A stretch of 64,000 nucleotides of DNA, taken from positions 16,028 through 80,027 of the IMG/VR virus record IMGVR_UViG_3300027762_000003; one strand, given 5' to 3'. Of this stretch, positions 10,440 to 47,457 are shown in pieces. The notes under the pieces were generated by a model. It searched no databases. It was not told where the DNA came from and was given only the letters and a program-made list of their open reading frames with translations. The position numbers and the translations under genes were made by a program. Position 1 is the first letter of the stretch. Each line of letters opens with the position of its first letter. Source of the stretch: a virus.

Positions 10440-11012
10440 TTACCTAGCGATCGTGACTTCGTGCTTCTGATCTTGGTATTTGCCGACACCGTAAGATTCA
10501 CGGCAAGGAGCGCCTTCAAATAACAGCACTTGGGCAATTCCTTCATTGGCATAAACCTTGATTGGGTTGGGGCTTGCGTTGAAGAACTCTAATGTTAAAT
10601 GACCGCGCCAACCGGGTTCTACTGGGGTCATATTCGTGATCAGCCCACATCGAGCATAGGTCGATTTTCCCATACAGATTCCTAGTGCGTTCTCAGGCAT
10701 ATTGAATTCTTCAACTGATACGCCCAAAGCGTAAGAATTGGCAGGTAAAAGAAAGAATGTACCCGTATCATTAGTCGATGCACCCGCCTGCTTGAATATC
10801 CCAGCCTCTAAGTCTTTGGGGTCTACAACCGTCCCTCTCGGTTGAAAAATTCTGAAATCTTTTGAGGACAAGCGAATATCGTAGCCGTAGCTTGACAATC
10901 CAAAGCTAACGGCACTCGCTACACCGCTGATTGTTTCTATGATTCGGGTTTTCCCTGACAGGAATGGGTTGAATATTTTCTTTTCTTCTATTTGTCTATC
11001 GCTCAGAATCAT
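10440..11012 (-). CDS. dcd: dCTP deaminase
   Basis: MILSD start at 11012; SFGLSSYGYDIRL, GKSTYARCG, TPVEPGWRGHLTLE, YANEGIAQ, GKYQDQ. Confidence 0.95.
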   Translation of the reverse strand: MILSDRQIEEKKIFNPFLSGKTRIIETISGVASAVSFGLSSYGYDIRLSSKDFRIFQPRGTVVDPKDLEAGIFKQAGASTNDTGTFFLLPANSYALGVSVEEFNMPENALGICMGKSTYARCGLITNMTPVEPGWRGHLTLEFFNASPNPIKVYANEGIAQVLLFEGAPCRESYGVGKYQDQKHEVTIAR

Positions 11013-11217
11013 ACTATAATGGGGTAAATTTCTACCATTATTATGGCACAAAATAAACACCGCGTGAAGTTGGATTTTAATTTGCTCACGCCCGGACAAA
11101 AAGAGATGTTTCAATCTATCGCATCCTATGATAAAGATTCAGCATATCGCTACTATAAAATAGTCACCAGCCCCGACTACGGGATGATCACGAATACAGA
11201 GAGTAAGAAGCAGAATT

Positions 11218-11931
11218 ATGGAATTCAAAGTAACCACGATCGCCAAAACCCCAAACCCACAACAAGTCACATGGTGCGCTATGCACCAGTGCTATTCCTC
11301 GCACCCTATTGGAATTGAAGAGCTGCCCACTGAAGAGAAGTGTGGGGAGATTGTGGTACGTCGGTTGTTGAAGGGCGATCGCGGTCATTATGGCCCGTTA
11401 GAGCATCCTCAAATCACTTTTGCTTGCGCTAATTTTCCCCATAGCGTAATGCAGCAGGCACGCACCCACAGAGTCGGGGTGAGTTTCGATTGCCAGAGCA
11501 TGAGGTACACGGCAGAGCATATTCTGATGGTTGCTAAAGGAGAGCGCTTACCGGAGGAGGTCTTCTATTTGCGTCCGGTTGGGGAATACGGCGATCGCCA
11601 AGGAACCCGATACGAATACACTCACGAACTCAGAGAGCAACACCTAAGTCTCATTCAGGATATGTGCCAGTCCTATGCTGATGCCGTGGACATGGGGATG
11701 CCCTACGAACAAGCGCGGGGGTTGATTCCGTTTGATGTCCGTCAGCATTTTGTGGTGTCATTCAACTTGCGCTCGTTGATGCACTTTCTAGACTTGCGCG
11801 CCAAAAAAGACGCACAACTCGAAATTCAAAAGCTGTGCGAATCAATGATGATGGAGTTTGAATGCTGGTGTCCGGCGATCGCCCAGTGGTACAAAGAGAA
11901 TCGATGGGGGAAAGCGAGGTTAGCGCCATGA
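11218..11931 (+). CDS. thyX: FAD-dependent thymidylate synthase
   Basis: GHYGPLEH, QARTHRVGVSFDCQSMRY (ThyX motif), NLRSLMHFLDLR...AQLEI. Confidence 0.95.
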   Translation: MEFKVTTIAKTPNPQQVTWCAMHQCYSSHPIGIEELPTEEKCGEIVVRRLLKGDRGHYGPLEHPQITFACANFPHSVMQQARTHRVGVSFDCQSMRYTAEHILMVAKGERLPEEVFYLRPVGEYGDRQGTRYEYTHELREQHLSLIQDMCQSYADAVDMGMPYEQARGLIPFDVRQHFVVSFNLRSLMHFLDLRAKKDAQLEIQKLCESMMMEFECWCPAIAQWYKENRWGKARLAP

Positions 11932-12203
11932 TACTAAGCAGGAAGTCCTGGGACACTGAGTTGAGATACTTTAGGGGTAACTATAAGTCTGAGTATCTTA
12001 GGCTCTAATTCTAGCGGACTATCTTCTATTACTTCTCCGTCTAATACAATTATTCTATGGATCGGTGAGTTCCAGTGCCTCTCTCTTTCTGTCTTTGGGA
12101 AGAACAGAGTCCAATGTAGCCATACAGAATTCACGTCTGAAGGACTGCGGGTTGAGATACTTTTAGGATTGCCAGATCCATACCCTGCAAGGGTTAAAGT
12201 AAG

Positions 12204-12249
12204 GAAAAAGCCCGCAATCCGCTACGCTGTCAGGGATTGCGGGCTTTTC
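12204..12249. terminator. Bidirectional intrinsic terminator
   Basis: AAAAGCCCGCAATCC...GGATTGCGGGCTTTT in the region where thyX and the minus-strand genes converge. Confidence 0.7.
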
Positions 12250-12254
12250 AAATG

Positions 12255-12665
12255 TTACGTTTCAAGCAGTTCTTTGTATTCCGCGATTATCGCGGGTAAC
12301 TTGTCGACAACGAATTCTTCCGCCTCGAATTGGCTCCACTCCTTGTGGATCGACTCGATTTCTCTGTCAATCTCCCTTGACAGATCCAAGGGGAGATCCC
12401 CATTGTAATATGCATCGAATAAGGCACTTGGATTATAGTGCCTTGCTTTGCCTTGCATCACGAGGTCGATGCAATCCAAAAATGCATCTTTTTTGCTTTG
12501 AAAGCCGAAAGAGAGTCCTTCTAAGGAACCAACACATACCCATCCGTCAATCCGACCCGGCTCTTGGACTGCCCTGTATTCCTCTTCTGGAAGATCTGGA
12601 TTTACCCAGATCTTCCAATTATGCTCTCCTGAGTTCAAATTCGAGAGAAAATCTTTAAGGCTCAT
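12255..12665 (-). CDS. Hypothetical protein
   Basis: 136-aa ORF with its own promoter (12696-12724) and a GAGG RBS. Confidence 0.65.
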   Translation of the reverse strand: MSLKDFLSNLNSGEHNWKIWVNPDLPEEEYRAVQEPGRIDGWVCVGSLEGLSFGFQSKKDAFLDCIDLVMQGKARHYNPSALFDAYYNGDLPLDLSREIDREIESIHKEWSQFEAEEFVVDKLPAIIAEYKELLET

Positions 12666-12695
12666 TGTTGCTTTCCTCTAAGTTCTTATTTTTTA

Positions 12696-12724
12696 ATAAT
12701 AGCAAGATGTCCCGTTATTGTCAA
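12696..12724 (-). promoter_or_regulatory. Sigma70-type promoter (phage promoter family)
   Basis: TTGACA-N17-TATTAT. Confidence 0.7.
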
Positions 12725-12725
12725 G

Positions 12726-13766
12726 CTAAAGATCCTCCCAACCCTCAAGTCCGGATGACATCACGTAGCTGGTAACCCCCGCTTCAAAGAAGTTGGACTT
12801 AGTGGAAGCGTCAGCAGAAGTGTCCGCAAACCGCTCCAGGTGAGCATAGGGGTTTTTCTCTTGTTCGTAGAGCGTGTCCAGTCCGATCGCTTTTAGCCGG
12901 ATGTTGGCCAAATAGCGCGTGTATTGCTCTGTACTTGCCTCGGTTATTCCCAGAATCTGATCGCCGATGATGTGATTTGTCCACCTGCACTCTTGCCGTA
13001 CCGCTTCACGGAACATCTCACTGATTTGGGCTTTCGAGTGGGGGAAGACCGTCATCCCCTCTGTGATCAGCTTCTGAAAGATGCGGACGTGGGATAGTTC
13101 ATCTCGGTTGATGAGCCGGAAAACATCGGCGCTACCAGACATGAGCTGACGACTAGCCAAGTTGTAGAAGAAGCAGAATCCGTTGAAGAAATAGAGACCC
13201 TCTAAAAGGTAATTCGCAATTAGGGTGATGAAGTAGTTCTCCTCCGTGGGGTCATCGATATACTGCTGGTAGTACTGTGCAATGAACTCACAGCGCTCTT
13301 TGAGAATGGGGTCGGTTCGCCAAAAGTCATAGATGTCGTTACGGCGATCGCCCGGCACAATCGCCTCAAGCATAGTCTGATAACTTTGGCTGTGCAATGC
13401 CTCCTGTGATGCCTGCTCGGTCAAACACAAGGCGATTTCAGGGGCGGTGATAGGACTTTTGATGTAGGGCAAATTATAGGTTTGCACTGAGTCCAGGAAT
13501 GTGAGGTAAGAAAGAATCCCGTCATAGGCGCGGCGTTCATGGATGGTCAGATTGGCGTAGTCCGTCACGTCCGTGGTGAGGTCGAGCTTTTCGGGTATCC
13601 AGAAGTTCTCTCTCATCTGCTTGTAAATCTTGGCGGCCCAATCATAGCGGATATTGTTGAGCTGCATCAGGTTGGTGGATCTGCCGTGCCACGCTTTCCG
13701 GGCTTCACGGCGATCGTCTCCTTGGGGGTTAAATACTGGGTTGGGTTTTAGTGTTGGTTGGTTCAT
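12726..13766 (-). CDS. nrdB: Class I ribonucleotide reductase beta subunit
   Basis: NFWIPE, FLDSVQ, QEALHSQSY, LEGLYF, RDELSH, C-terminal NFFE...Y. Confidence 0.95.
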   Translation of the reverse strand: MNQPTLKPNPVFNPQGDDRREARKAWHGRSTNLMQLNNIRYDWAAKIYKQMRENFWIPEKLDLTTDVTDYANLTIHERRAYDGILSYLTFLDSVQTYNLPYIKSPITAPEIALCLTEQASQEALHSQSYQTMLEAIVPGDRRNDIYDFWRTDPILKERCEFIAQYYQQYIDDPTEENYFITLIANYLLEGLYFFNGFCFFYNLASRQLMSGSADVFRLINRDELSHVRIFQKLITEGMTVFPHSKAQISEMFREAVRQECRWTNHIIGDQILGITEASTEQYTRYLANIRLKAIGLDTLYEQEKNPYAHLERFADTSADASTKSNFFEAGVTSYVMSSGLEGWEDL

Positions 13767-13836
13767 GGTTGTTTTTGGATTAGATGAAAGAAAATCGCCC
13801 TCATTTAAGATAACAAGGGCGATCTAGAAGGGTTGA

Positions 13837-14490
13837 TTACTGAGCAAAAACTTCGTCTAAGATTTCAATCAGATACTGGTTGATTTTCCCATACTTGGAG
13901 TCATGTGAATCGTGGATTGGGATACCCCGACTACGAGAAAGTGCGGCCGCTTTTCTTCCCAGTAGGTTAGCTTCTTTAGATGTGATTTGAATCCCCAAGA
14001 TATTGGCATATCCCAAAATCGTGTAGTAGTGTCCATCGGGGTGAGAGATTCGGTCAAGCTCCGCATTGTGACGGGTGACGGTTTCCTCAACTTGAGCTAG
14101 TCGGCGTTCCTGCTCTCGATATGCTAGAGCCATCTCAACGAGCGCGTCACCGGTGGTTTTCTGGATGGCGTAAGAGCCGGTTTTACGAATAGATGGCAAG
14201 ACTTCAGATGTCACCCACTTACGAAAAGGTTTTGCTTCAGGCTTACGTGAAGACAGCACCAGCGCATACATGCCGGACTCTGAAACTACTGCTGTGCTTG
14301 GGTTTCCCCGATTACCCTCATTTAGAATGATAGTATTCTTTTCTTCTTCATCAAGCCGGGTTAATGCCTGACTCGGATTGCTGATTTCCAAAACTTCGCA
14401 CAAGTCCTTAGCAACAAACCAAGGCTCTCCATCTTGAGTGATGATGCGAACATCTTGACCTTTGAAGTCGAAAACTGATAACTTATTCAT
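13837..14490 (-). CDS. BRO-N domain antirepressor-like protein
   Basis: VRIITQDGEPWFVAKDLCEVLEI...SESGMYALVLSSRKPEAKPFRKWVTSEVLPSIRKTGSY. Confidence 0.92.
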   Translation of the reverse strand: MNKLSVFDFKGQDVRIITQDGEPWFVAKDLCEVLEISNPSQALTRLDEEEKNTIILNEGNRGNPSTAVVSESGMYALVLSSRKPEAKPFRKWVTSEVLPSIRKTGSYAIQKTTGDALVEMALAYREQERRLAQVEETVTRHNAELDRISHPDGHYYTILGYANILGIQITSKEANLLGRKAAALSRSRGIPIHDSHDSKYGKINQYLIEILDEVFAQ

Positions 14491-14545
14491 GTTAGCCTCT
14501 AGTACAGGTTGACCAAACCCCCGGATGTTGATAGCATCGCGGGGG
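14491..14545 (-). promoter_or_regulatory. Structured 5' leader, copy B
   Basis: CCCCCGCGATGCTATCAACATCCGGGGGTTTGGTCAACCTGTACTAGAGGCTAAC then ATG; TATAAT lies just upstream. Confidence 0.65.
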
Positions 14546-14593
14546 TTGTTATGTTTTTATTATAGTATAGACTCTAGTTGTTAGTCGCAAAAA

Positions 14594-15187
14594 CTAAGCC
14601 GTGAGAAGGTCTTTTATTTTCCGTTTCTTGCGTACTTTTTTGATGTTCTCCTTGATGATTTTCTGGAGGCTCGGATCGCACCCAACCTTGGCAATAAGTT
14701 CAGACGAATTAACATCCCGATCGCTCTCATGTCCACAACAAGCGCAATGGTAGACGGGTTTGTTGATATCCATTTCTGGATCATAGGACAGGCACTGAGA
14801 GCAGATCCGAGATAAAGGTAAATCCGACGCAGGTTTTAATCGCGTCATCTTTTTGCCAAACTCTTGAGTTTTCTTGTCGATTAAGTCGATTTGCTGACCG
14901 ATCGCCGCGTCCAAATTACTCTTATTTTGACCCGCTAAAGCCGCTCCCGTCATCCTTGGCTTTGGCTTTGACTTTCCCTACCTTCTTCTGCAAGCCATCC
15001 TCAACTGCGATACCGGATGAATAGGTGGTCAGGTAAGAAGCGATGCGGTACTGGTGCGATCGCCGTCTGCGTTTCGTCTTCTCATGGATGCGTCTTATCC
15101 TCTGCTTACACTCCTTTACTCCTTGGGAATCACCGCAATGTTTCCACCGTAGGCGTTGAATAGTCCTGGGATAAGGGCTTCGAGGAT
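14594..15187 (-). pseudogene. tnpB: Truncated, frameshifted TnpB-family (IS200/IS605) nuclease remnant
   Basis: Upstream frame reads IQRLRWKHCGDSQGVKECKQRIRRIHEKTKRRRRSHQYRIASYL...IAVEDG...KAKAKDDGSGF then stops. A second frame reads AGQNKSNLDAAIGQ...SRICSQC...CACCGHESDRDVNS (zinc ribbon, RuvC-III). The N-terminal half including RuvC-I is absent. Confidence 0.85.
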
Positions 15188-15196
15188 TTTAAGAGG

Positions 15197-15521
15197 ATTG
15201 AGCAGGATCTAATACTCTCTTAGGGATTGAAACCGAACACCAAATCGCATTAATCACTGCCGAAATTCAGGATTCAATGGATCTAATACTCTCTTAGGGA
15301 TTGAAACGTAATCCTGATCAACCCAAGCTAAGGCATTAGCCAGATTCAATGGATCTAATACTCTCTTAGGGATTGAAACAAGCTTGTGGGTAGCTCGCAG
15401 ATCCCCATCAAGATGATTCAATGGATCTAATACTCTCTTAGGGATTGAAACTGTTGCGTGCTAAATTAGAATCATCAATTGAGAGATTCAATAGATCTAA
15501 TACTCTCTTAGAGATTGAAAC
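15197..15521 (+). CRISPR. CRISPR mini-array: 5 repeats of 37 bp and 4 spacers (37, 35, 35, 33 bp)
   Basis: Consensus GATTCAATGGATCTAATACTCTCTTAGGGATTGAAAC at 15271, 15343 and 15415; 5'-divergent copy at 15197; 2-mismatch copy at 15485. Spacers are unique. Orientation inferred from the ATTGAAAC 3' end. Confidence 0.97.
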
Positions 15522-15533
15522 GATTAAATCAAC

Positions 15534-15571
15534 AAAAAAAAGCGATCGCCCCCAAAGACGACCGCTTTTTT
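15534..15571 (-). terminator. Intrinsic terminator beside the array (pairs better on the minus strand, possibly bidirectional)
   Basis: A-tract, GCGATCG...CGACCGC, T-tract. Confidence 0.7.
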
Positions 15572-15587
15572 GCTACGCTTCCGACCT

Positions 15588-16007
15588 TTAGCCGGACATT
15601 CCATCCCCCATAAAAATGATGAGAACGTTGTCCGTCTTCAGTGACTCAGAAGCTTTCCGAGCGATCGCCACCGCCTCACCGTAACTCTGCACCGGCAGTG
15701 CCACCAGCGCACCACTGACCCGACCCCGTAAGACGTGGGTAAATTCGTGCGTGCAGGTGGTCACGCCCCGGTTCCCTGGTACGGCGCGGTTTATTTCAGC
15801 AACAGCATGATCGCCGGGAACGAACAACGCCCAGCCAACGCTAGGGCACGTCGAGTAAACCTTGGGTGCGGCGGCGATTCCGGTTCTGGAATCGGCGATC
15901 GCTGTCTCTCCCATATTTACGATGCCATTGGTCACCCCGATGATTGCCCCCACAAGCATCCCGACTACGGTTGCTATCATAGTGGTAAGTTTAGATGTCT
16001 TGCTCAT
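15588..16007 (-). CDS. Membrane-anchored/exported hypothetical protein
   Basis: N-terminal hydrophobic helix; TCP...TCT cysteine pair as in 19484-19882. Confidence 0.6.
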   Translation of the reverse strand: MSKTSKLTTMIATVVGMLVGAIIGVTNGIVNMGETAIADSRTGIAAAPKVYSTCPSVGWALFVPGDHAVAEINRAVPGNRGVTTCTHEFTHVLRGRVSGALVALPVQSYGEAVAIARKASESLKTDNVLIIFMGDGMSG

Positions 16008-16070
16008 TGTTTCACCTCTTGTTGTTGGTTGTGGATGGCGATCGTCGGTGGTTCGGCGATCGCCTTTTTC

Positions 16071-16355
16071 TTAGCGGATCGCGTAGTTTTTAGCGCTCAG
16101 GTTAAGGTAGGGTTGCATATTCCTTAGCGCCCGAACTGCTGCATCAAAATGATCAATGCCGCCTTCTGGAATAGGTAGACTATTTAATGCCTTAACCGCC
16201 GCGTTAAAAGGTTTGATATCATCCTCCCTAGAGAGCTGTTGGAGAGTATTGATTGCCGCATCAAAAGACTCGATATCGTCTTCCGTGGAAAGTTGCCGAA
16301 GGGCGGCGATCGCCTCTTCCTTGTACCGATGAATCCGTACTTCGTTGTGGGTCAT
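16071..16355 (-). CDS. Small helical-repeat hypothetical protein
   Basis: Three repeats of I..F[DN]AA[IV]..L; likely start MTHNEV after AAGGA. Confidence 0.55.
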   Translation of the reverse strand: MTHNEVRIHRYKEEAIAALRQLSTEDDIESFDAAINTLQQLSREDDIKPFNAAVKALNSLPIPEGGIDHFDAAVRALRNMQPYLNLSAKNYAIR

Positions 16356-16569
16356 TTTCTTTTCCTTTTGTCTATGTGTTCTAGGGGTTTTGGAGTCCCC
16401 CAAACTCTTAAAGTCGAATGTGCATCGTGGATAAAATCGCTGCTTTCAGATCGGCGGATGTGTGTCCGCGATCGATAAAGTATTTAGCCAAATCCACCGC
16501 TACAGCGATAATCTTTTCCTCTTCAATTGAGAGGGGTCTAACCTCATAAATACCCTTGGTTTCTGTCAT

Positions 16570-16836
16570 TTACTCCGCCTCCTTAATGGCATCCAGGATA
16601 TCGGATATATTGCAGTATTTATCGCCAGAGATCCAACGGTGGATAATCTCGTCTAGGATGGTTTGGGCGATTACTTCATCATCGGCTTCGTGGAGGGTCA
16701 CGAACTTATATCCTTCTGATTCTGAAGGATAGCTGCCTTGAATGAAGTATTTTCTGCTTCCTTTTGTGATGAGGAAGTGTGTGAATTTGTTGTTCAGATT
16801 AACGTAGGTGTTGTCAGTTAATAACTTTAAAATCAT
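16570..16836 (-). CDS. Hypothetical protein (small paralogue family)
   Basis: Translationally coupled to 16836-17129 and similar to it. Confidence 0.6.
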   Translation of the reverse strand: MILKLLTDNTYVNLNNKFTHFLITKGSRKYFIQGSYPSESEGYKFVTLHEADDEVIAQTILDEIIHRWISGDKYCNISDILDAIKEAE

Positions 16837-17129
16837 CAGAAGATCTCCTCAATAGATGTAGATAGTTTGTTGATTTCTTCCCGAATTTTGTAGTAGCTAC
16901 AGTAGTCCCACCCTTGCGACATCCGTAGCATTATTTCCGAGAGGAGCGCTACTGCATCATCCTTAGAATCGGCAGTAGCAATCACTTCATCAAACGGTGC
17001 AACGTGGGGATACCGAGGAATCAGTTCGGCGGTGATGCACCACCCCTCGTCGATTTCTCCTTGTTGCACATGGAATTTGTGGTAGTGGGAGAGATTGTAA
17101 AACTCGTCGTCAGCAGTTCTAAAAATCAT
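16836..17129 (-). CDS. Hypothetical protein (small paralogue family)
   Basis: 97-aa ORF downstream of dnaN on the same strand. Confidence 0.6.
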   Translation of the reverse strand: MIFRTADDEFYNLSHYHKFHVQQGEIDEGWCITAELIPRYPHVAPFDEVIATADSKDDAVALLSEIMLRMSQGWDYCSYYKIREEINKLSTSIEEIF

Positions 17130-17180
17130 GGTGTAGGTGTACCTCTGTCAACATATCCGATTAAATCCGATTAAATCCGA

Positions 17181-18260
17181 TTAATAATCCCTAATCTGAA
17201 CCGGCATAATCAACACAAGACGATCACCGTCCTTCACGACCGCCGGGGTATTCGGTTGATTGACGTGGAGAGTAAACTCACCATCAGGAAGGGCGGACAC
17301 AAGGTAGGGGTGATGGATAGCGATTCTGAACGGCTCATCAATAATGGATGCAACGACTTCCTCGCTCGCAGATCCGGTATCCCCGCTACATGAGAATGAC
17401 TCAACTTTTGCGAGAACGCCTTCCCCAAATTGGAGCGCGACATTCCTGGTATCACCACAAGTGATTGCTACCCGATCTAGAGCCGCTTTCAACTCACTCC
17501 CATTCATGGTGATTTCATGCTTGAATTCAGCCGGTATAAGCCTAAGTGCATCAGGATACTGCCCAGAAGGGATGCGTGCTGCAATTCGGGTATCTCCAGT
17601 GATAAATAAAATCTGAGAATCATCAAACTTGAATTCGATATTCCCATCAGCCGCCACCTTGAGAATGGCAACCGCCGATCCGGGAATAGTAACCATGAAA
17701 TCATCAGACTTCAATTCTCCAGATGAGTAGCCCAAGCGCTTTCCGTCTGTGGCGATCGCGTGGAGAATATTGTCGGCAATCGAAACATTTACCCCGGTCA
17801 AAACCTGCTTCGTTTCATCTTTGCTGGCATAGCGCGAAGCGAACCGAAGATGTTCTATGACTGACTCAGGGAGCGTGTAGGCACGGTCGCTTTCGATTTC
17901 GGGGAATTCCGGAAAATCGTCAGCAGCGATCGCCTTGTATTGAAACTTACCTTTACTCCACTTAATCAAGACATTGAACTCATCATCAATGTCTAGGCTG
18001 ATTTCCTGATTGCGGTCGATTTTGCTAACGACTTGCTTTAGGAAATCGTAGGGGATACAGAATTCTCCAGAGTCGGAACTTTCCACTGGAATCTTGGTGG
18101 CGATCGCCGTCTTCAGATCTGATCCCGTCACCAGTAAGGAGTCCTCTGTTAATACCATCTTGACGTTAAGTAGCATGGTATTGAATGGTCGGGAATCGAT
18201 TGTGCGCCCAACAATATCAAGAGCGCTTTTTAGGACTGCAACATTACAACTAAATTTCAT
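17181..18260 (-). CDS. dnaN: DNA polymerase III beta sliding clamp
   Basis: 359 aa; TGSDL, ADDFPEFP, ASKDETKQVLTGVN, ATDGKRL, GQYPD...LIP, C-terminal LIMPVQIRD. Confidence 0.95.
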   Translation of the reverse strand: MKFSCNVAVLKSALDIVGRTIDSRPFNTMLLNVKMVLTEDSLLVTGSDLKTAIATKIPVESSDSGEFCIPYDFLKQVVSKIDRNQEISLDIDDEFNVLIKWSKGKFQYKAIAADDFPEFPEIESDRAYTLPESVIEHLRFASRYASKDETKQVLTGVNVSIADNILHAIATDGKRLGYSSGELKSDDFMVTIPGSAVAILKVAADGNIEFKFDDSQILFITGDTRIAARIPSGQYPDALRLIPAEFKHEITMNGSELKAALDRVAITCGDTRNVALQFGEGVLAKVESFSCSGDTGSASEEVVASIIDEPFRIAIHHPYLVSALPDGEFTLHVNQPNTPAVVKDGDRLVLIMPVQIRDY

Positions 18261-18415
18261 TATTGATCTTCCTCGATACTTAGAATAGCTAAAGCTCTGG
18301 ACATGGCGCTTAGTGCTGTTTTGAAAAGTTCACGATCTCGTAGATTGTTTACCTCACTAAGCGCCTCTTTGGCGGTGGTGATCGCTTTCTGGAATTCAAC
18401 CTCATGCCTGCTCAT
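18260..18415 (-). CDS. Small hypothetical protein
   Basis: MSRHEVEF..., overlapping the stop of the upstream gene and the start of dnaN. Confidence 0.45.
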   Translation of the reverse strand: MSRHEVEFQKAITTAKEALSEVNNLRDRELFKTALSAMSRALAILSIEEDQ

Positions 18416-18579
18416 AATTTCGATCCAACGGCTTTGTCTTCCATTATCCACCCGATCGCCATCCAGTCGTACTCAGACATAATGACCCCCGTGTTAGATC
18501 TCCATCCGTTGGGGTCTTTAAATAGCACCTTAGTGTTGCCACTAACTTGATGTTTGAATCGAACAAATTGTAATGCCAT
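18412..18579 (-). CDS. Small hypothetical protein (55 aa, below the ORF-track cutoff)
   Basis: Hand translation MALQFVRFKHQVSGNTKVLFKDPNGWRSNTG...GSKL; GAGGG RBS; ATGA overlap with the next gene. Confidence 0.5.
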   Translation of the reverse strand: MALQFVRFKHQVSGNTKVLFKDPNGWRSNTGVIMSEYDWMAIGWIMEDKAVGSKL

Positions 18580-18590
18580 GGTTTTCCCTC

Positions 18591-18970
18591 TTATTTAATC
18601 AATGCAGAAAAATCTATCAAATCATCCAACTCTTTAATTATTGGATATTTACTTGAGAGTCTGTTTAATTTCGTAGTGGCTTTTTCATCACTACAGACAA
18701 TAATAAGCCTCTCAATTACCCACCCTTAGCTTCCACAAAGAGAGACGGAACGGTTTCTCCTTTTTTGATGACCGCAAAATCACATCGCCATACAAGACTA
18801 CGATTGGGCTTAACATAGGAATTACTTGGGCAAAGCGGGATTCTATATTGCTGGTCTATCCGGTGTTCGCTTTCTGGGAAATGGTCTAACAGATGGTAGT
18901 AAACGCAAGCTTCAAAATTTGAGTCAAACTTCTTACCCTCCAAATAAGTTACATTGCTTCGATACCTCAT
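18591..18970 (-). pseudogene. DUF1064-like PD-(D/E)XK nuclease, frameshifted
   Basis: KKFDSNFEA...CDFAV...VEAKGG then stop; a plausible C-terminus (VIERLIIVCSDE...LIK) resumes in another frame. Confidence 0.6.
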
Positions 18971-19533
18971 TTGATCTTCTCCATGTGTGAATTAACTTTC
19001 TCTGCCCAACTTGGATCGGTGGCGTAAACTTCTCCAATTAGTTTAAGGCTTTCCTCTGGATTTGTCTTAGTAAATTCAGTTGTTCTACCATGTTCCTTGA
19101 GGATGTTCTCTACCGTTTGAGCAAACAGAATATCGCTCTTGTCGTCTGCAAATCCCAAGTCCTGCACAACCATTTGCCCGCCATAATATTCGGTGGTGGT
19201 GGTGGTGACATCGTTACCCTTGATTCCCCAATGATTGTTCTCGCCAATTACTGCTGCGCCGTTACCTGTTTCGTGAGAGGCGATCGCCAATGTAATTGCA
19301 GGGTTGATGCCGTAATCTTTCTCCAGATCTTGCGCGATCGGGTAGAGGGATTTCTGATATTCATCAAGGTTAGTCAGTGTTGTTAGCTGTTGCTCTCCTG
19401 GATTAGATAGCGGTATCCACCAATGGGATTGCCCTAGGTTGCCCAGGATGAGATGAATAGATAAAAGCCCGGCTGCCATTAGGCTAATTTTGGCTAGGAG
19501 CTGTAGCTGTGGGTCGTGGCTCGTTTGTTCCAT
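18967..19533 (-). CDS. GH73 glucosaminidase/muramidase with N-terminal membrane anchor
   Basis: GINPAITLAIASHETGNG, NNHWGIKG, TTEY, YATDPSWAEKV. Confidence 0.88.
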   Translation of the reverse strand: MEQTSHDPQLQLLAKISLMAAGLLSIHLILGNLGQSHWWIPLSNPGEQQLTTLTNLDEYQKSLYPIAQDLEKDYGINPAITLAIASHETGNGAAVIGENNHWGIKGNDVTTTTTEYYGGQMVVQDLGFADDKSDILFAQTVENILKEHGRTTEFTKTNPEESLKLIGEVYATDPSWAEKVNSHMEKIK

Positions 19534-32819: not shown

Positions 32820-33410
32820 GTGCAATCCAAGGAAGCAAAAACAAGGATCAAAGTGTACCGATTTTACGGAATGCCAGCAACTACGGAACCCAGGTATGGA
32901 TTAATTTCGGCCATATCTTATGCAGTATTGATCTGCCGAGATCGTCGTCGAAGTCAGCTTCAAGGGACTAGCTTCTGGGAGCGATTTCACAAGTGTGTCT
33001 ATGATGCTGGAATCAGATCGACTAATCTCCTGGAGTATCCAGCACTCCTATGCCAAGGGGTGAGTTCAGACTTAACCCAGGCTATCCTCAAGGGATTGTC
33101 CATCCCTCTATCCGAATGCCCTGATATTCACCTCCCCATCCTCCCCACTGGAGAAGCGGGGGACTTGTTCACCCCCAACCAGTCCCCACTACTGACAGCC
33201 TATTGGGTAGAGACCGTGGCTAAATGCTGCAAACTCCACGGATATACAGAAGAGGATATTCTGGAAATTCCTAGGGATATCACCAAGTCGCAATGGGTAG
33301 CGGTCTCTTGTCGGGTCAGAAGAGAGGAGGATAAGGAGATAGCCAAGGTTAATAGTGATCGAGCCAAGGCACTGGAAGAATTGGAAACAATTGAAGTCGA
33401 GGTAAGTTAA
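32820..33410 (+). CDS. csf4: Type IV-B CRISPR small subunit (Csf4/Cas11-like)
   Basis: Helical protein with FWERF...A..RSTNL.EY...LC, directly before csf2; the start may be the GTG at 32853. Assigned largely by synteny. Confidence 0.6.
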   Translation: MQSKEAKTRIKVYRFYGMPATTEPRYGLISAISYAVLICRDRRRSQLQGTSFWERFHKCVYDAGIRSTNLLEYPALLCQGVSSDLTQAILKGLSIPLSECPDIHLPILPTGEAGDLFTPNQSPLLTAYWVETVAKCCKLHGYTEEDILEIPRDITKSQWVAVSCRVRREEDKEIAKVNSDRAKALEELETIEVEVS

Positions 33411-33412
33411 TA

Positions 33413-34576
33413 ATGGACTACGATATCCACGATCGCCGTCACGTCACTTATCACTGTGTATTCGATCTGCTCTCCCCCTTGAGCCACATTGGGGAAACTC
33501 TCGGTGGTAGCAATATCACCGTACTTAAACAAGCCAAACGCATCGCCATTGATGGGAGGGAGCGATCTCACTTCGTTTTTTCTTCCAACGCATTCAGAAA
33601 CGCCATATTTAGACGCAAGGGATTTGGATTTACCCTTGACGGATTAGGCGTGCAAGTTGACCCCACCACCCATCACACCCTTTTTGCAGGAGGGCGGATC
33701 GACTCCGGGACAGTTGCCAATATCGAGCTTGAAGACCAGTTTCGGCGCTGGCTTCCTGGCTTATCCGTACTCGGAACCGCCAAACCTAAAGACATGGGAG
33801 GGGAGAAAGGCTCCCAGATGATTAGTGGGCGGCTATCCGTAGGTGATGCTGTTCTTGTTTGTTACGAAACTATTAATTACATTTATCAGCAAGCGCCTGG
33901 ATTGATTCCCTATTCAATTTACTCATCCGTCAAGCGGATTATGGAGGCAAGGGAGGCGATCACTGCCGATATTTTTTCGCAACCGTCTCCAGAGGCGAGC
34001 GCTGCTTATGAGAAAGCACTGGAGGAGGAGCTACCCAAAATCAAGCAGCACTTGAAATCCTCTACTGCGTGCATTTCCACTAATCGCTTCTATCGCCGCG
34101 ATAGCGAGAGTGATCCTGATTTAGTGAAATACCTGAAAGCGCCTGAGCAGAAACTCATCGGCACTATCCCCGGACTTACGGAGGAAAAAAAGAAGCCGGT
34201 AGCAGAGAAACAGGAGTCTCGATTCATGGGAGACGACCACTTGATTGCTCCAGGCAACCAACTCTATAGCCGGATGGACATGCACGGCACGACTGTAGAG
34301 GAAGGATTTCTCTGTGCAGCGCTCCTAGAATTCGCCAAGCACCCTTATATAGGTGGTAAATCGAATCGAGGTAATGGGCACGTAAACTTGAGGATAAATT
34401 ACAAGGATCACACCATAGGGGAATCGGGAATATTGCTTTCGGTGGGAACCGACTACCAGCAATTAAGCGATCGCGCTCAAGAGAATTACCGTCGGTATTG
34501 TAATCATTTGGAGGAATTTAAGCACCATCTGGAATCCGCAGATTCTATGCCTAGACATCTTTTAGGAGGGAAATAA
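33413..34576 (+). CDS. csf2: Type IV CRISPR backbone RAMP (Csf2/Cas7)
   Basis: LLSPLSHIGE, SSNAFRN..FRR, HTLFAGG, LSVLG, MISGRLSVGDA, G-rich loop IGGKSNRGNGHV. Confidence 0.9.
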   Translation: MDYDIHDRRHVTYHCVFDLLSPLSHIGETLGGSNITVLKQAKRIAIDGRERSHFVFSSNAFRNAIFRRKGFGFTLDGLGVQVDPTTHHTLFAGGRIDSGTVANIELEDQFRRWLPGLSVLGTAKPKDMGGEKGSQMISGRLSVGDAVLVCYETINYIYQQAPGLIPYSIYSSVKRIMEAREAITADIFSQPSPEASAAYEKALEEELPKIKQHLKSSTACISTNRFYRRDSESDPDLVKYLKAPEQKLIGTIPGLTEEKKKPVAEKQESRFMGDDHLIAPGNQLYSRMDMHGTTVEEGFLCAALLEFAKHPYIGGKSNRGNGHVNLRINYKDHTIGESGILLSVGTDYQQLSDRAQENYRRYCNHLEEFKHHLESADSMPRHLLGGK

Positions 34577-34582
34577 ATAGAA

Positions 34583-35269
34583 ATGGAACCCATACAGATT
34601 ACCGCTTGGATGAGTAGCGCGATCGCGCTGCCCGACGATTGGTCGCCCGACTTGGTGGGCATAGTGATCGCTACCATATTTGATAAAGATCCTCGCCCTT
34701 TTCAAGAGGATTTATCCACACTTGAGGGGGTTCCCTTTGCTAAAACCGATTTAGGTTCCCCTCTACTTTGGTATTTTGCCTGCTCGTCCCCTTGCTACGA
34801 GCTACTTAGTGAAGAGGTGACCCGTTTCCGAAAACGCTGGGACGCTGATGACGGTCGGGTTAGCTGGGGTAAGCGCAAGCCCCAATTTAACGCATCGGAG
34901 GGGAGTGAGAAAAATTATGATCTCCCTCTTCCTCTCAGGGGAATGGAGCGGATCGATTGGTTCGCCATTGGAGATATCGGAGGCGCAGAGCGACTGCTCA
35001 AGCAAGTCACCCACCTAGGGAAAAAACGGAAAGGGGTTGTGGCGCGGTGGGTGGTGAAGGCAATCGCTCACGACTGGCATCTGTACCGCAACAACGAGCT
35101 AATGCGTCCTATCCCTATTAGCTGCAAGCGTCCCGAATGTCTTTCATACGGCATTCGGGATTGGGGATGGCGGCCCCCAATCTGGCTACCTAAGAATAAG
35201 GAGCGGTGTGCCATGCCGGTAATCACAGTAATCAAGCCATGGATGAACAATCAAGAGCAAGCTTTTTAG
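34583..35269 (+). CDS. csf3: Type IV CRISPR Cas5-like RAMP (Csf3)
   Basis: MEPIQITAWM, FRKRWD, IDWFAIGD...LL..VTHLGKKR.G.V..W.V, LMRPIP, RPPIW. Confidence 0.88.
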   Translation: MEPIQITAWMSSAIALPDDWSPDLVGIVIATIFDKDPRPFQEDLSTLEGVPFAKTDLGSPLLWYFACSSPCYELLSEEVTRFRKRWDADDGRVSWGKRKPQFNASEGSEKNYDLPLPLRGMERIDWFAIGDIGGAERLLKQVTHLGKKRKGVVARWVVKAIAHDWHLYRNNELMRPIPISCKRPECLSYGIRDWGWRPPIWLPKNKERCAMPVITVIKPWMNNQEQAF

Positions 35270-35931
35270 GATGGACTCAACTCCCTCGATTTAAGAAAAG
35301 AGTGGAGGAAGCCAAGCGAACCATCAATGAGGCACTGGCGATCGCTCCCTCCTATGTTGCGGTTAGTTGGGGAAAAGATAGCACCGTACTACTCCACCTG
35401 TGCCAACAAATCGATCCGAATATCAAGGCTATTTCACTAGGGAATCCGGATCGCTCTTTTTGTGGCTATGAGCAGGTAATTTCGGACTACTGCGATCGCT
35501 TCCCAACCAATCTCGAAACAATCGAAATAGAGGGAGATCACGTTCCCGACAAACTCAAGCAACTGCGACTGTGGGAGCGGTATCCTATGGCGATCGTAGG
35601 AGTACGGAAAGAGGAATCGCAATATCGCTCGATGGCTATTTCTCGTTATGGGCTGATCTACCAATTCACCAATGGCGAAAAGGAGGGAAGTTGGAGGTGC
35701 TTTCCTTTGGGATATTGGGGATGGCAAGATGTCTGGGGTTATATAGTGCAGCACGATTTACCTTATCTGAGTGCCTACGATCGCCAATCTTGGGAAAGGG
35801 GAAGGACGACTGACCATTTGAGTAAAAGCACTAAAAAGCGATGGCAGCGTACCCGATTAGAGGGATTAGCGTCCATCGCTCCTGAATACTATCAGTATTT
35901 GCTCAAGCAATACCCAGAAATGTTCAACTAG
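35239..35931 (+). CDS. CysH/PAPS-reductase-like PP-loop protein associated with type IV-B
   Basis: YVAVSWGKDSTVLL, GVRKEES..R, PL..W...DVW.YI....LPY...YD; no C-terminal ECGxH. Start placed at MDEQSR. Confidence 0.88.
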   Translation: MDEQSRASFLGWTQLPRFKKRVEEAKRTINEALAIAPSYVAVSWGKDSTVLLHLCQQIDPNIKAISLGNPDRSFCGYEQVISDYCDRFPTNLETIEIEGDHVPDKLKQLRLWERYPMAIVGVRKEESQYRSMAISRYGLIYQFTNGEKEGSWRCFPLGYWGWQDVWGYIVQHDLPYLSAYDRQSWERGRTTDHLSKSTKKRWQRTRLEGLASIAPEYYQYLLKQYPEMFN

Positions 35932-36256
35932 CTAGGACAAAATCGACCCCATTAGGGGTTACAATCCCATCCCCGTAGCTGACCGAAATAAACTCCAACC
36001 CTTCATGTCCAATATCGGAAAATCCATGAACTTGCCCGGATTCCTTATGGTAAAGATCCCCCTTCTTTATCTGGTGATTTTTGTCTCCATCAAACCAGAT
36101 CCCACTTCCTCTTAGGATTTGGATACTACAGGGTACTTCGTGACTATGGGGAGGGACTTCACCACCCTCTTCTATCCTCACCAGGAGGACTTGAGTATTG
36201 TAGCGATTGAAGATATTTTGAACGGTTGTTTTCTTGCACTCGTCAATCTCAAACAT
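35924..36256 (-). CDS. Cupin-domain protein
   Basis: GGEVPPHSH...ILRGSG...IKKGD....SGQVHGF. Confidence 0.85.
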   Translation of the reverse strand: MFEIDECKKTTVQNIFNRYNTQVLLVRIEEGGEVPPHSHEVPCSIQILRGSGIWFDGDKNHQIKKGDLYHKESGQVHGFSDIGHEGLEFISVSYGDGIVTPNGVDFVLAS

Positions 36257-36293
36257 ACACTAATCCAATTTTGTTGACCCATCTATTTTAACC

Positions 36294-36968
36294 ATGAATT
36301 ACTGTTATCTGTGCGGGAAAGACGGAGATCGCCCATTAGATCTTCCCAAAACATTCACCGCCCATAACCTAGCCAAAAACCCCACGTCTGACGTACTCTG
36401 TGATCGCTGTTACGGGACGATTGCAGGTGACGAAAAACAGCTCTACTACTGGAACGAGAACAAGAATCCGCCTGCATGGTCAAAGTTATGGGGGCGATCG
36501 CTCTCCAGGCTTTACGTGGGAGAAGAACTGAGATCACCCATCATCGAAGGAGAGCGGGAAGGTACGGCGATCGTCCACTCTTTACCCACTCGTGTAGAAA
36601 TCCGGCAATGGCTCATCAATCCACCTGAGCCACCATTTACAATCGCCATCTCGGTTTCAGGGCAAAAGCATATTTTACCTTTTGCCCAAGAAGCGCATGA
36701 TAGAGAGCGGTTTCCGATTCGATTTGAGTTAACCTCTTTGGAGGTCAACCGCCAAGAATTCACTCGCCTACTCGCTAATTTTGAAATGCTTTACGACATG
36801 GGATTGACTAAAGCGGAAATCCTTAAAGGCAATTACAGTGTGTCACGAGTGGCGGCGATTCCTTATGCGGATTTCCTGAAAAGAGAGGAGGAGATCGCGC
36901 AGTACCGTGGCACTGACCTGCTAGAGTTGGCGGCGTTTGTAGCGCAAAAGGAAGGGGCGATCGAGTAG
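36294..36968 (+). CDS. csf1: Type IV CRISPR Cas8-like large subunit (Csf1)
   Basis: CYLCG...FT.H.....P.SD.LCDRC zinc finger; LINPPEPPF.I.I..SGQKHILP. Confidence 0.85.
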   Translation: MNYCYLCGKDGDRPLDLPKTFTAHNLAKNPTSDVLCDRCYGTIAGDEKQLYYWNENKNPPAWSKLWGRSLSRLYVGEELRSPIIEGEREGTAIVHSLPTRVEIRQWLINPPEPPFTIAISVSGQKHILPFAQEAHDRERFPIRFELTSLEVNRQEFTRLLANFEMLYDMGLTKAEILKGNYSVSRVAAIPYADFLKREEEIAQYRGTDLLELAAFVAQKEGAIE

Positions 36969-39610: not shown

Positions 39611-41093
39611 CATACAAGCCAGAATTAATGAAAAGCTTAATCGGAGGCGACAAAAACGCAGAGAAGGCAGGAGGTCACCACTAATTAAGCTTGAGCAAGC
39701 GATCTCCGACATCGATGGGCCAGTTGATTTCACACGCCAGATTCTTGGCATCAAGCTCTACCCCAAACAAGAAGAACTCTTAGCCGCGATCTGGCAACCT
39801 GGAGTTACCCACGTGGTGTTGTCACTCGGCAGACGTTCCGGTAAGACCACCATGGCGGCTATTTGTGCGGTTTATGCTGCAATCTGCTTGGGCGATCGCT
39901 ACCGTAAAGCGCTTGGTCTACGCTCCACGTTTAATATCCTCTGTATCGCCAACAAGGAGGCACAATCCAAAGTCGCGCTAGGGATGATTAGGGACTTAAT
40001 TCAGAAAGCGCCCCTACTCAAACCCTTAATCAAGCGCCAAGCAATGGAAACCCTAGAACTAACCAACGGGGCAATCTTTACGGCATCCCCCGCCTCATCT
40101 AGGGGTATCCGTGGGGAAGCATCACCCCTAATTATTTTCGATGAGTTGGCTCACTCCCTCGACACATCCGGAAACGCAGCCGGTGACCAACTCTATCAAG
40201 CGGTGGCTCCTGGCGCTGCTCAGTTCGGGAAGTACGCCAAGATTCTTATGCTTTCTACCCCATGGATTCAAGGGGGAATTTTTTGGGACTTCTATAACCA
40301 AGGGCAATCCCCCGATTACCCGTCCACGTTCTCTATTTCCTTGCCAACATGGGAAGTTAACCCCCATCTACCCTATGATGGGGAATTCCTCAAAGAAGAG
40401 CGCGATCGCGACCCATGGTCATTTAACATCGAGTACGGCGCTAACTTTGCCTCACCCGTAGGCGCTTTTCTCTCGTCTGATGACGTGGAAGCGTGCATAC
40501 TCAGAGAACATGCCAACCCCACCCCAACGAAGTCAGACCACTACTACACCCTTTCTCTTGACCCTGCTAAAGGTGGGCGGGATGAGTATGTAGCCTGCAT
40601 CCTCCACTGGGAAAAGGATGAGTGCATAGTCGATCGCTGGTATGTATTTGAGCCATCCGTCCAGGATGGTAAGCGGAAACTCGTAAGCGTGGAAGAAGTA
40701 GAGAATTGGATTATCGAGAGCGATCGCCGCTACCGGTTCCACAAGATTATCCTCGACCAGTACAACAGTCAAAGCACTATACAGAGCCTAAAGAAGCGCG
40801 GGTTACCTTGCCGTGAACTTCATTGGTCAGCCAAGTCGGTGACGGAAGCCTACACCAAACTAAGAAACCTGGTCATCTCTGGCAACCTAAACCTGTACCG
40901 GCACAAGAAGGCGATCGAACAGTTGAAGGGATTAATTGTGAGGTACAACAGCGTAGGCACAATGTCTATTAGCGGCGGTGACGGTGCGGGGGTTGACGAC
41001 TACTGCGCTGCTCTTGCCGGCGCTGTGTTGGTGAGTACGCCACCCAGACCGCCAGGGCGATCGGGTACGTTCTCGATGAGTATGTGGGGGTGA
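39603..41093 (+). CDS. terL: Terminase large subunit
   Basis: LYPKQ, GRRSGKT, IIFDE, LSTP, SLDPA, ILDQY, GVDDY. Confidence 0.93.
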   Translation: MISIQARINEKLNRRRQKRREGRRSPLIKLEQAISDIDGPVDFTRQILGIKLYPKQEELLAAIWQPGVTHVVLSLGRRSGKTTMAAICAVYAAICLGDRYRKALGLRSTFNILCIANKEAQSKVALGMIRDLIQKAPLLKPLIKRQAMETLELTNGAIFTASPASSRGIRGEASPLIIFDELAHSLDTSGNAAGDQLYQAVAPGAAQFGKYAKILMLSTPWIQGGIFWDFYNQGQSPDYPSTFSISLPTWEVNPHLPYDGEFLKEERDRDPWSFNIEYGANFASPVGAFLSSDDVEACILREHANPTPTKSDHYYTLSLDPAKGGRDEYVACILHWEKDECIVDRWYVFEPSVQDGKRKLVSVEEVENWIIESDRRYRFHKIILDQYNSQSTIQSLKKRGLPCRELHWSAKSVTEAYTKLRNLVISGNLNLYRHKKAIEQLKGLIVRYNSVGTMSISGGDGAGVDDYCAALAGAVLVSTPPRPPGRSGTFSMSMWG

Positions 41094-47183: not shown

Positions 47184-47457
47184 AGTATTTTTAGGGTTTC
47201 AATCTCTGATATTGAATTATCTATTAGAAATCGCCGGTTGATCTCACCAGCAAATTGTGGCTGCCAAGACTGCACCACCATACCCCCCGAAACCGGGGAA
47301 CATCCGAGGACGTTAGAATTATTATAACAGCAAAACAAAGACAATTAGAGTCAACGATTGCCCCACCCCCACCCGCATTTCTACGAGTGGGGGTGGGGCA
47401 ACAGAAAGCCCGGTTAACCACCGGGCTTTGGGCATATTTAATATTCGATTTATTGCA

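Follow-up and report, generated by a model that had tools for sequence, protein, structure and literature searches.

A CRISPR mini-array with repeats of a cyanobacterial type I-D-class family in the complete genome of a cyanophage

The question raised by the locus described here is what a virus might do with a short CRISPR array that it appears unable to process or extend by itself. The array occupies positions 15197-15521 of a 64,000-nucleotide (nt) stretch of viral DNA, namely bases 16028-80027 of the 80,027-bp IMG/VR record IMGVR_UViG_3300027762_000003; this whole stretch is termed the window, and positions without further label refer to it. A first-pass annotation, made from the letters alone, had described the locus as a phage mini-array with host-like type I-D repeats and no adjacent cas genes. 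The explanation that we consider best, and to which we give about an even chance, is that it represents an orphan mini-array comparable to that of the Nostoc/Anabaena cyanophage N-1, captured from a host array of the type I-D class and dependent on host Cas proteins. Since the repeats are of a host type and the phage encodes no enzymes to cut or extend the array, it probably borrows the CRISPR machinery of its host. The anatomy of the array, the gene inventory of the phage, the family assignment of the repeats, and contact between hosts and this phage lineage are borne out by the data.

A repeat search recovered five direct repeats of 37 nt each in 15197-15521, with start-to-start steps of 74, 72, 72 and 70 nt, separated by four spacers that agree letter for letter with those listed in the first-pass annotation:

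15197-15233, plus strand: repeat 1, 81% identical to the reference copy, with its 5' 13 nt replaced
15234-15270, plus strand: spacer 1, 37 nt
15271-15307, plus strand: repeat 2 (reference copy), 37 nt, ending in ATTGAAAC
15308-15342, plus strand: spacer 2, 35 nt, no target found
15343-15379, plus strand: repeat 3, identical to repeat 2
15380-15414, plus strand: spacer 3, 35 nt, no target found
15415-15451, plus strand: repeat 4, identical to repeat 2
15452-15484, plus strand: spacer 4, 33 nt, the sole spacer with a candidate protospacer
15485-15521, plus strand: repeat 5 (terminal copy), two substitutions

Repeats 2-4 are thus identical to each other and repeat 5 carries two substitutions, while repeat 1 differs only at its 5' end, its 3' 24 nt being unchanged. 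The five 37-nt repeats, their regular spacing of 70-74 nt, and the four unique spacers of 33-37 nt together present the features of a generic CRISPR array. The 3' 14-mer of the repeat, TTAGGGATTGAAAC, occurs six times in the window with up to two mismatches, against 0.6 occurrences expected from shuffled sequences, none of which reached six.

That the array is genuine and belongs physically to the phage, rather than being the product of a chimeric join, follows from a separate assembly whose contigs link both of its ends to phage genes at the depth of the flanks. In the Logan contigs of one run (X1), the sequence on the left (11000-15300) passes, after the phage genes, across repeat 1 and spacer 1 and reaches repeat 2, and on the right (15422-19000) it leads out of repeat 4, across spacer 4 and repeat 5, to phage genes again. 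The contigs bearing the array have a depth of 14-15x, equal to that of the flanks. For the unitig into which the 37-nt repeat collapses, the depth is about 40, roughly threefold that of the flanks, in keeping with its three identical copies. Since the record itself may derive from the sample of X1, this linkage serves as a consistency check and not as independent proof.

The carrier had been taken for a phage, and this is borne out by a complete genome of 80,027 bp. The record has 122-bp direct terminal repeats and a CheckV completeness of 100%, and it encodes TerL, a portal protein, a major capsid protein, DnaB, DnaG, DnaN, ThyX, a Bro-N protein, a methyltransferase, and both subunits of ribonucleotide reductase. 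A PADLOC match to 'RT_UG29' proved to be the DnaG primase. The HIP1 motif is a marker of cyanobacteria and their phages. This motif (GCGATCGC) is found 82 times in the 80-kb genome against 1.2 expected copies, and the closest cultured relative by TerL is the Synechococcus phage S-CBS4, at 41% identity. From the terminal repeats, the CheckV estimate, the HIP1 excess and the TerL relationship, it follows that the phage is complete and infects cyanobacteria; it is a siphovirus-like cyanophage of an uncultured lineage.

Sequence comparison places the phage repeat in a cyanobacterial family of 37-nt repeats ending in AGGGATTGAAAC ('DR5-like', of the type I-D class). This 3' end provides an 8-nt AUUGAAAC handle, and the 3' 14 nt are identical to those of many host repeats. 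Among 401 sampled cyanobacterial genomes, 117 match the 3' 20-mer with up to three mismatches, and about 70 of these, counted over genome rows, carry arrays whose repeats number from tens to hundreds. Over its full length of 37 nt, the host repeat is identical to that of the phage at 24-27 of 37 positions, and the best arrays from metagenomes reach 30/37. The same value is found for the nearest annotated array, with 82 copies, on plasmid pPg_01 of Pseudanabaena galeata CCNP1313 (first copy at L094:7350-7386), whose repeat also shares the GATTCAA start of the phage repeat. This array lies directly downstream of, and in the same direction as, a type I-D operon of the order cas3'-cas10d-cas7d-cas5d-cas6-cas4-cas2, and its spacers (32-45 nt, mode 35-36) span the range of 33-37 nt seen in the phage. 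The position and direction of the pPg_01 array behind its I-D operon underlie both the orientation that we assign to the phage array and the 'I-D-type' label. Host arrays that stand behind their own cas operons have ATTGAAAC at the 3' end in the same reading direction, which orients the phage array on the plus strand, with a predicted AUUGAAAC handle. A sub-threshold Rfam match of the array to CRISPR-DR54 fell on the wrong strand and is uninformative, as the host arrays score nothing either.

The type I-D assignment made in the first-pass annotation is upheld by the pPg_01 array (30/37), but it does not fix the effector. In a metagenome contig (L082:344-10940), an array with a 27/37 repeat follows a hybrid operon of the order Cas8b-Cas7b-Cas5b-Cas3-Cas6d-Cas4d-Cas1-Cas2d. 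Because the same family thus stands, together with Cas6d, behind a Cas8b-Cas7b-Cas5b operon as well, the repeat alone leaves the type of effector open; the family is tied to Cas6d-type maturation and not to one effector, which may be I-D or I-B-like. Likewise, the comparison of the repeat with host arrays that the first-pass annotation had suggested gave a match at the level of the 37-nt family, whereas no exact copy was present in the sampled hosts and metagenomes, the best again being 30/37. No array with the exact phage repeat turned up in IMG/VR, in the metagenome contigs of JGI, or among 185,579 prokaryotes represented by a single genome for each species. The 18-mer TCTCTTAGGGATTGAAAC gave only solitary chance matches outside arrays in the species-representative genomes, one of them in a Microcoleus metagenome-assembled genome, and a single solitary match in IMG/VR. 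A two-copy pattern search of the JGI metagenomes yielded 15 arrays, all with CCCTCTTAGGG and none with the variant of the phage.

The gene inventory of the phage was established by running PADLOC on 106 open reading frames (ORFs) of the whole genome, by Cas6 probes, and by tblastn with 15 host Cas proteins from I-D and I-B-like loci. None of these detected Cas6, Cas1, Cas2, Cas4, Cas3, or an I-D or I-B effector in the complete genome. This is the constellation that defines the N-1 type, namely a virus devoid of cas6, of adaptation genes and of a matching effector. In N-1, five repeats of 37 bp and four spacers form an array that is not accompanied by cas genes and is transcribed during infection (PMC4916379), and its repeat is cleaved by Alr1566, the I-D Cas6 of the host (bioRxiv 10.1101/2020.04.14.041012). 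The present array shares with it the number and length of the repeats, the four spacers and an extent of about 0.4 kb, as well as a repeat of the cyanobacterial family ending in GGGATTGAAAC, the lack of cas6 and adaptation genes in the phage, and the lack of known spacer targets. N-1 differs in being an unrelated myovirus, in having an AT-rich leader, and in that its repeat is 73-84% identical to host repeats. In the phage studied here, a tnpB relic stands in place of the leader, the stem of the repeat is weakened, a type IV-B module is present, and expression is a prediction only.

For the steps from transcription and processing to loading and targeting, we infer the following course. The array would have been captured from a cyanobacterial array of the I-D class by illegitimate recombination or by a rearrangement associated with an insertion sequence (IS), and it would have remained static, acquiring no spacers of its own, since it has no leader and the phage no adaptation genes. 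During infection it would be transcribed rightward up to the terminator described below. A Cas6d-type endonuclease of the host would cut the transcript 8 nt before the end of each repeat, and the resulting CRISPR RNAs (crRNAs), with a AUUGAAAC 5' handle, would be loaded into Cascade-like complexes of the host (I-D or I-B-like) or into its type III complexes. As proposed for cyanophage N-1, these could then act against rival mobile elements present in the same cell, and additional loading into the phage's own type IV-B Csf complex is conceivable.

That hosts with such systems meet this phage lineage is indicated by a 36-nt spacer in the cyanobacterial genome G345 (L024:2560-2595, minus strand), whose array has repeats of the phage array's family. 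The spacer agrees with the end of the TerL gene at its 3' side (41056-41091) in 32 of 36 positions, with all four mismatches at third codon positions, and the protospacer is directly preceded on its 5' side by GTC, which fits the GTN protospacer-adjacent motif (PAM) of type I-D. As this spacer matches TerL next to GTC, hosts bearing this class of system acquire spacers from this phage lineage with an I-D-type motif. Of five genomes that have arrays of this kind, two yielded Cas10d, while G345, with the query used, did not.

Several observations weigh against a functional array that relies on host Cas proteins. First, none of its spacers matched any of the sequence collections searched. The search of phage and plasmid collections that the first-pass annotation had suggested returned no target: blastn found no spacer match for the array in 50,697 INPHARED phage records or for the spacer block in 72,556 PLSDB plasmids. 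The spacers are also without a match in 49 related viral loci and nine related phage genomes, and the first 20 nt of each have no exact match in IMG/VR, in a scan by exact words that misses mismatched protospacers. Within the phage's own 80-kb genome no spacer matches beyond 13 nt, in agreement with the earlier remark that a self-match was not apparent by eye. The only lead comes from the contigs of three runs (X1, X2 and X3) that we aligned to the phage genome. In X2, an independent aquatic metagenome of 2025, one contig covers just 15451-15486, that is spacer 4 with one base to its left and two to its right. As spacer 4 alone is matched and the flanks (at least 255 and 96 nt) are unlike the phage and hold no repeats, this contig appears to contain a candidate protospacer, which counts in favour of a functional array and for which the mismatch count was not displayed. 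A 22-nt flank of it is absent from IMG/VR, and the bases upstream are GCC and not GTN, in an alignment that could not be read base by base.

Second, the phage repeat differs from every sampled host repeat at no fewer than seven of 37 positions, including a C>T change in the 5' arm of the canonical stem, and its predicted hairpin is weak. The hairpin TCTC-TTA-GGGA noted in the first-pass annotation exists, and its weakness holds, but ViennaRNA prefers a five-pair stem of UCUAA and UUAGG, with one U.G pair, around a 7-nt loop. The predicted energy is -4.1 kcal/mol, compared with -7.5 to -9.2 kcal/mol in host repeats of the family. On account of the divergence and the weak predicted fold, cutting by a host Cas6 is uncertain. 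Third, no promoter-like site was recognized on the plus strand between 14954 and 15196, a look-up of sequencing runs containing this DNA gave no RNA run, and an IS relic together with a missing leader would fit a passively carried fragment equally well. The features that bear on this last point flank the array:

14594-15143, minus strand: IS605-family tnpB (Cas12-family) relic, frameshifted near 14934-14941 and 5'-truncated, with its broken end towards repeat 1
15144-15196, plus strand: 53-nt gap separating the tnpB relic from repeat 1, where alone a dedicated promoter could fit
15536-15571, both strands: two-way intrinsic terminator with a 16-pair hairpin and a T-run on the minus strand; on the plus strand an A-run, the stem and TTTTTT

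The ORF at 14594-14953 on the minus strand contains the Pfam domain Cas12f1-like_TNB, the zinc ribbon of Cas12f1-like and TnpB proteins. A six-frame search with a TnpB/Cas12 model of 445 positions places model positions 353-440 at 14630-14941 and positions 278-347, in another frame, at 14934-15143, so that about the first 277 positions are missing. The relic is 34% identical to an ordinary TnpB and shows no similarity to Cas12p, a phage-encoded Cas12 discussed below. Matches of PADLOC to 'Cas12u2/Cas12f' in the phage correspond to this relic and not to a working cas gene. As the gene that touches the array is a frameshifted and 5'-truncated relic of the TnpB/Cas12 family, what stands in the place of the leader is pseudogene DNA, and the replaced 5' end of repeat 1 probably marks a recombination junction with it. 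The 53-nt gap, too, lacks a recognizable promoter and does not resemble the leader found in the I-D array of Pseudanabaena; nor do the flanks of the phage array have homology to that locus. The array hence has no leader of the host type.

TnpB-family genes adjoin arrays of this repeat family elsewhere as well: a 587-aa TnpB in the related contig L042 (19077-20840) overlaps the last repeat of such an array, and an ORF annotated 'zinc ribbon domain' (L094:13482-13961) lies 110 nt past the Pseudanabaena array. These cases may point to an insertion preference for arrays of this kind. To the right of the array, the first-pass annotation had placed a terminator between it and a converging operon; this stands, the 16-pair hairpin at 15536-15571 being predicted to close both the array and the operon on the minus strand. 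The ORFs beyond it (15588-16007 and 16071-16403) have no family match, and a 29% alignment to Cas12p in that region (E = 0.66) was dismissed.

These flanks are most relevant to the strongest competing explanation, which we regard as unlikely though somewhat ahead of the others, namely that the array is an inert piece of a host array that entered recently along with IS-related DNA and is neither transcribed nor under selection. The adjoining decayed tnpB, the truncation of repeat 1, the want of a leader and of a recognizable promoter, and the lack of known spacer targets would all be consistent with such a passenger, as would the three internal repeats, whose continued identity is expected of a young insert. 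The neighbourhood is also variable, in that X2 contains a relative of the phage, 95-99% identical, and the contig of this relative diverges at 14160, within the Bro-N gene and to the left of the array. Over 14160-15788 X2 offers only short pieces, and this gap was not counted as absence of the array in the relative. Short contigs of X2 and X3 match just 14447-14545, the leader before the Bro-N gene, with different flanks and, in X3, about 86% identity, which suggests a mobile or repeated leader element. Set against an inert passenger are the proper two-way terminator at the end of the array, the intergenic slot that it cleanly fills, and the terminal repeat, in which the sole change of the 3' arm (G>A) turns the U.G pair of the predicted stem into U-A and so keeps the pairing. 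Moreover, the cas-less array of N-1 is transcribed (PMC4916379) and its repeats can be cleaved (bioRxiv 10.1101/2020.04.14.041012).

The phage is not free of cas genes. The claim that none adjoins the array is correct for intact genes, but 17 kb away, in another transcription unit, lies the only cas effector of the phage:

32820-36968, plus strand: type IV-B module with a 196-aa ORF, csf2, csf3, a cysH-like gene and csf1; a cupin gene lies on the other strand

PADLOC identifies Csf2 (typeIV_Cas7, 7.8e-33), Csf3 (Cas5, 7.2e-31) and Csf1 (Cas8, 3.9e-26), whereas the NCBIfam matches to Csf1, Csf2 and Csf3 are below the cut-off, and a profile of the Csf2 family matches the Csf2 of the IV-B structure PDB 7JHY. 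The cysH-like gene between csf3 and csf1 matches Pfam PAPS_reduct with 49 bits, above the cut-off, and the cupin gene is placed, in opposite orientation, between it and csf1. The 196-aa ORF (32820-33410) has no family or PDB match; it is conserved at this cas11 position in 47 of 49 related loci, and by position it is here considered cas11-like. Family scans of the other ORFs of the module found no helicase or Cas10 domains, neither a DinG nor a Cas10 family was among the 25 families listed of the 101 matched by PADLOC, and the locus contains no array and no Cas6. As judged from its genes, the module constitutes a complete type IV-B set, matching the description in PMC8175902.

The block is conserved in 32-49 viral contigs of IMG/VR. 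In a large protein collection Csf2 has 177 homologues, the closest of which are 87% and 66-67% identical. A search of IMG/VR with the single Csf2 sequence returned nothing, while a profile search retrieved 49 contigs in which the five-gene block is conserved; no GenBank phage record has a detectable relative of Csf2. Nine of the related records were retrieved whole. A search of five related IV-B records for the phage's major capsid protein was negative.

Six of the 49 contigs carry arrays with 37-nt repeats of the cyanobacterial style and up to 28 spacers. In G402-G404, G414 and G415 these stand directly behind a gene for a Cas12-like protein of 622-627 aa, or a 78-80% identical match to it, as does one of the two arrays in G405. 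This protein is Cas12p (PDB 9JFS, 1415 bits), the phage 'Cas12 hacker', which depends on a trans-activating CRISPR RNA (tracrRNA) and uses a GTN PAM (bioRxiv 10.1101/2025.01.20.633832). It is encoded at L042:14179-16047, L044:17713-19596 and L047:16330-18201, directly upstream of arrays of 9-28 repeats, and at G405:C1:75683-77542, upstream of a five-repeat array, G405 being a complete 95-kb genome with terminal repeats. Two spacers of this last array (G405:C1:78038-78159) perfectly match their own genome over 36 and 34 nt, at G405:C1:20703-20738 and 72162-72195. By comparison, no array is present in four HIP1-rich IV-B phages without Cas12p, namely G406 and G411 (both complete), G409 (95%) and G412 (77% by CheckV). 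HIP1 occurs in 65-108 copies in these four and is absent from G408 and G410, which are probably not cyanophages. Of 97 spacers extracted in all, four are those of the present phage; none of the 93 from the arrays of related phages matches it. The arrays of related IV-B phages thus belong to Cas12p, which is not so in the present phage, where neither a homologue of Cas12p nor one of its tracr-bearing region was found anywhere in the genome. By this comparison it is an exception among its relatives in having an array without Cas12p.

The similarities to the type V-P arrays (bioRxiv 10.1101/2025.01.20.633832; PDB 9JFS) extend to their being phage-borne, to 37-nt repeats of the cyanobacterial style, to their presence in contigs with the same IV-B module, and to a GTN PAM as in type I-D. 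They differ in standing directly behind cas12p and a tracrRNA region, both absent here, and in having 5-28 spacers.

Given this module, crRNAs cut by host Cas6d could guide the phage's own complex of Csf2, Csf3, Csf1 and the Cas11-like protein, together with the CysH-like protein, so that the array would be the natural guide supply of the viral IV-B complex. This possibility, which is compatible with the explanation that we favour, seems rather improbable to us, and somewhat more so than an inert passenger. In such a case the complex would bind, without cutting, the nucleic acids of competing elements or of the host, its targets being rival elements or host genes. A complete IV-B module is the sole cas effector encoded by the phage, with no Cas12p to compete for the array. 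Type IV-B systems lack arrays and Cas6 of their own, and a current hypothesis has them scavenging crRNAs produced by other systems (PMC8175902). An array close to a IV-B module is seen in G405, about 0.9 kb beyond csf1. Further, a family of archaeal viruses combines IV-B with a mini-array (Duan et al. 2024, PMC10848311): the locus of these Fuxiviruses shares csf1-3, a cas11-like and a cysH-like gene, a small array, and the lack of an adaptation module, though its array has two repeats and lies inside the IV-B locus, while here it lies apart from it and has repeats of the I-D class. The distance of 17 kb and the separate transcription unit speak against such a guide supply. Most IV-B phages related to the present one have no array of this kind: G406, G411, G409 and G412 do without any, and the arrays of G405, G414, G415 and G402-G404 follow Cas12p, from which it follows that a IV-B module needs no phage-borne array. 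In addition, the solved IV-B complex, according to the summary of PMC7937560 in PMC8175902, assembled on non-CRISPR RNA despite co-expressed I-E crRNAs.

Slightly less probable still, in our estimate, is a role of the array as an RNA decoy or regulator, whose active repeats would titrate Cas6d or Cas7 of the host, in the manner of a Racr, or whose crRNA-like products would repress cas genes, in the manner of a Cracr. Counter-defence of this kind would pay, since hosts with this repeat family target the phage lineage, and a divergent and weakly folding repeat could form aberrant complexes. There is precedent for repeat mimics in phages without cas genes, both for viral repeat mimics that inhibit CRISPR-Cas (Racr, PMC10651486) and for viral crRNA-like arrays that silence cas or toxin promoters (Cracr, bioRxiv 10.1101/2024.10.29.618823). 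The phage also holds a further repeat-like unit behind a strong promoter:

47196-47232, minus strand: solitary repeat-like 37-nt unit in the 5' untranslated region of the gene at 46515-47183, 23/37 identical to the repeat

Its last 12 nt equal those of repeat 5, a match for which we estimate about 0.02 chance occurrences in the genome, and 12 nt separate its end from the start codon of the gene. A TTGACT-17-TATAAT promoter with an extended TG lies about 100 nt upstream, and the unit and the array repeat differ in their predicted folds. The unit could be a solitary repeat, loosely fitting the pattern of a Racr, or a product of chance. The array itself departs from both precedents: a Racr is a solitary repeat without spacers, usually just behind a promoter, whereas here there are four spacers of full length and no recognized promoter; a Cracr has shortened spacers partly complementary to cas or toxin promoters, whereas these are of normal length and show partial matches of at most 12 nt to the cas locus and promoter region of the nearest annotated host system, which is a surrogate for the actual host.

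The last alternative, that the array is what remains of a type V-P locus after loss of the Cas12p nuclease and its tracrRNA, recalls the related IV-B contigs in which Cas12p of 622-627 aa precedes 37-nt-repeat arrays of the same broad family, and a Cas12-family relic does touch the array, but it is largely refuted and very improbable. This relic resembles an ordinary TnpB and not Cas12p, and it is encoded on the other strand, its 5' end pointing to the array, which is the wrong geometry for a cas12p-tracr-array locus. The genome has no homologue of Cas12p or of the tracr region anywhere, and the repeat is 30/37 identical to a host I-D repeat as against 24/37 to the nearest Cas12p-linked one (compared by eye with one in L044).

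An orphan array relying on host Cas proteins would have a further parallel, besides N-1, in the virus-borne mini-arrays implicated in interviral conflict (Medvedeva et al. 2019, as cited in PMC10848311; Faure et al. 2019). On those accounts, it has in common with them a short, cas-less array with host-like repeats and a presumed use of host Cas proteins. As described in the same sources, spacers of those mini-arrays match related viruses and their repeats are identical or nearly identical to those of the host, whereas in the present phage the repeat reaches 30/37 at best and the spacers match no collection. Near-identity of the repeat to a host array was thus not found; the true host may be unsampled, so that membership in this group becomes less probable without losing its place among the possibilities.

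Arrays without cas genes have been known in cyanophages from one cultured example, N-1, and the present phage adds a second, unrelated lineage. As it does so, it shows that the capture of host arrays of the I-D class recurs in freshwater cyanophages. What appears new in comparison with N-1, as far as can be read from the genomes, is the combination of a complete IV-B module, without Cas12p, with cyanobacterial arrays of the same repeat family that target this phage lineage. Once its host is found, the phage would offer a simple natural system for asking whether the borrowed crRNAs serve host complexes or the IV-B complex, or act as decoys, and whether a repeat with a weakened stem is still processed. 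If crRNAs from this array were to be found in the Csf complex, type IV-B would gain a defined RNA partner.

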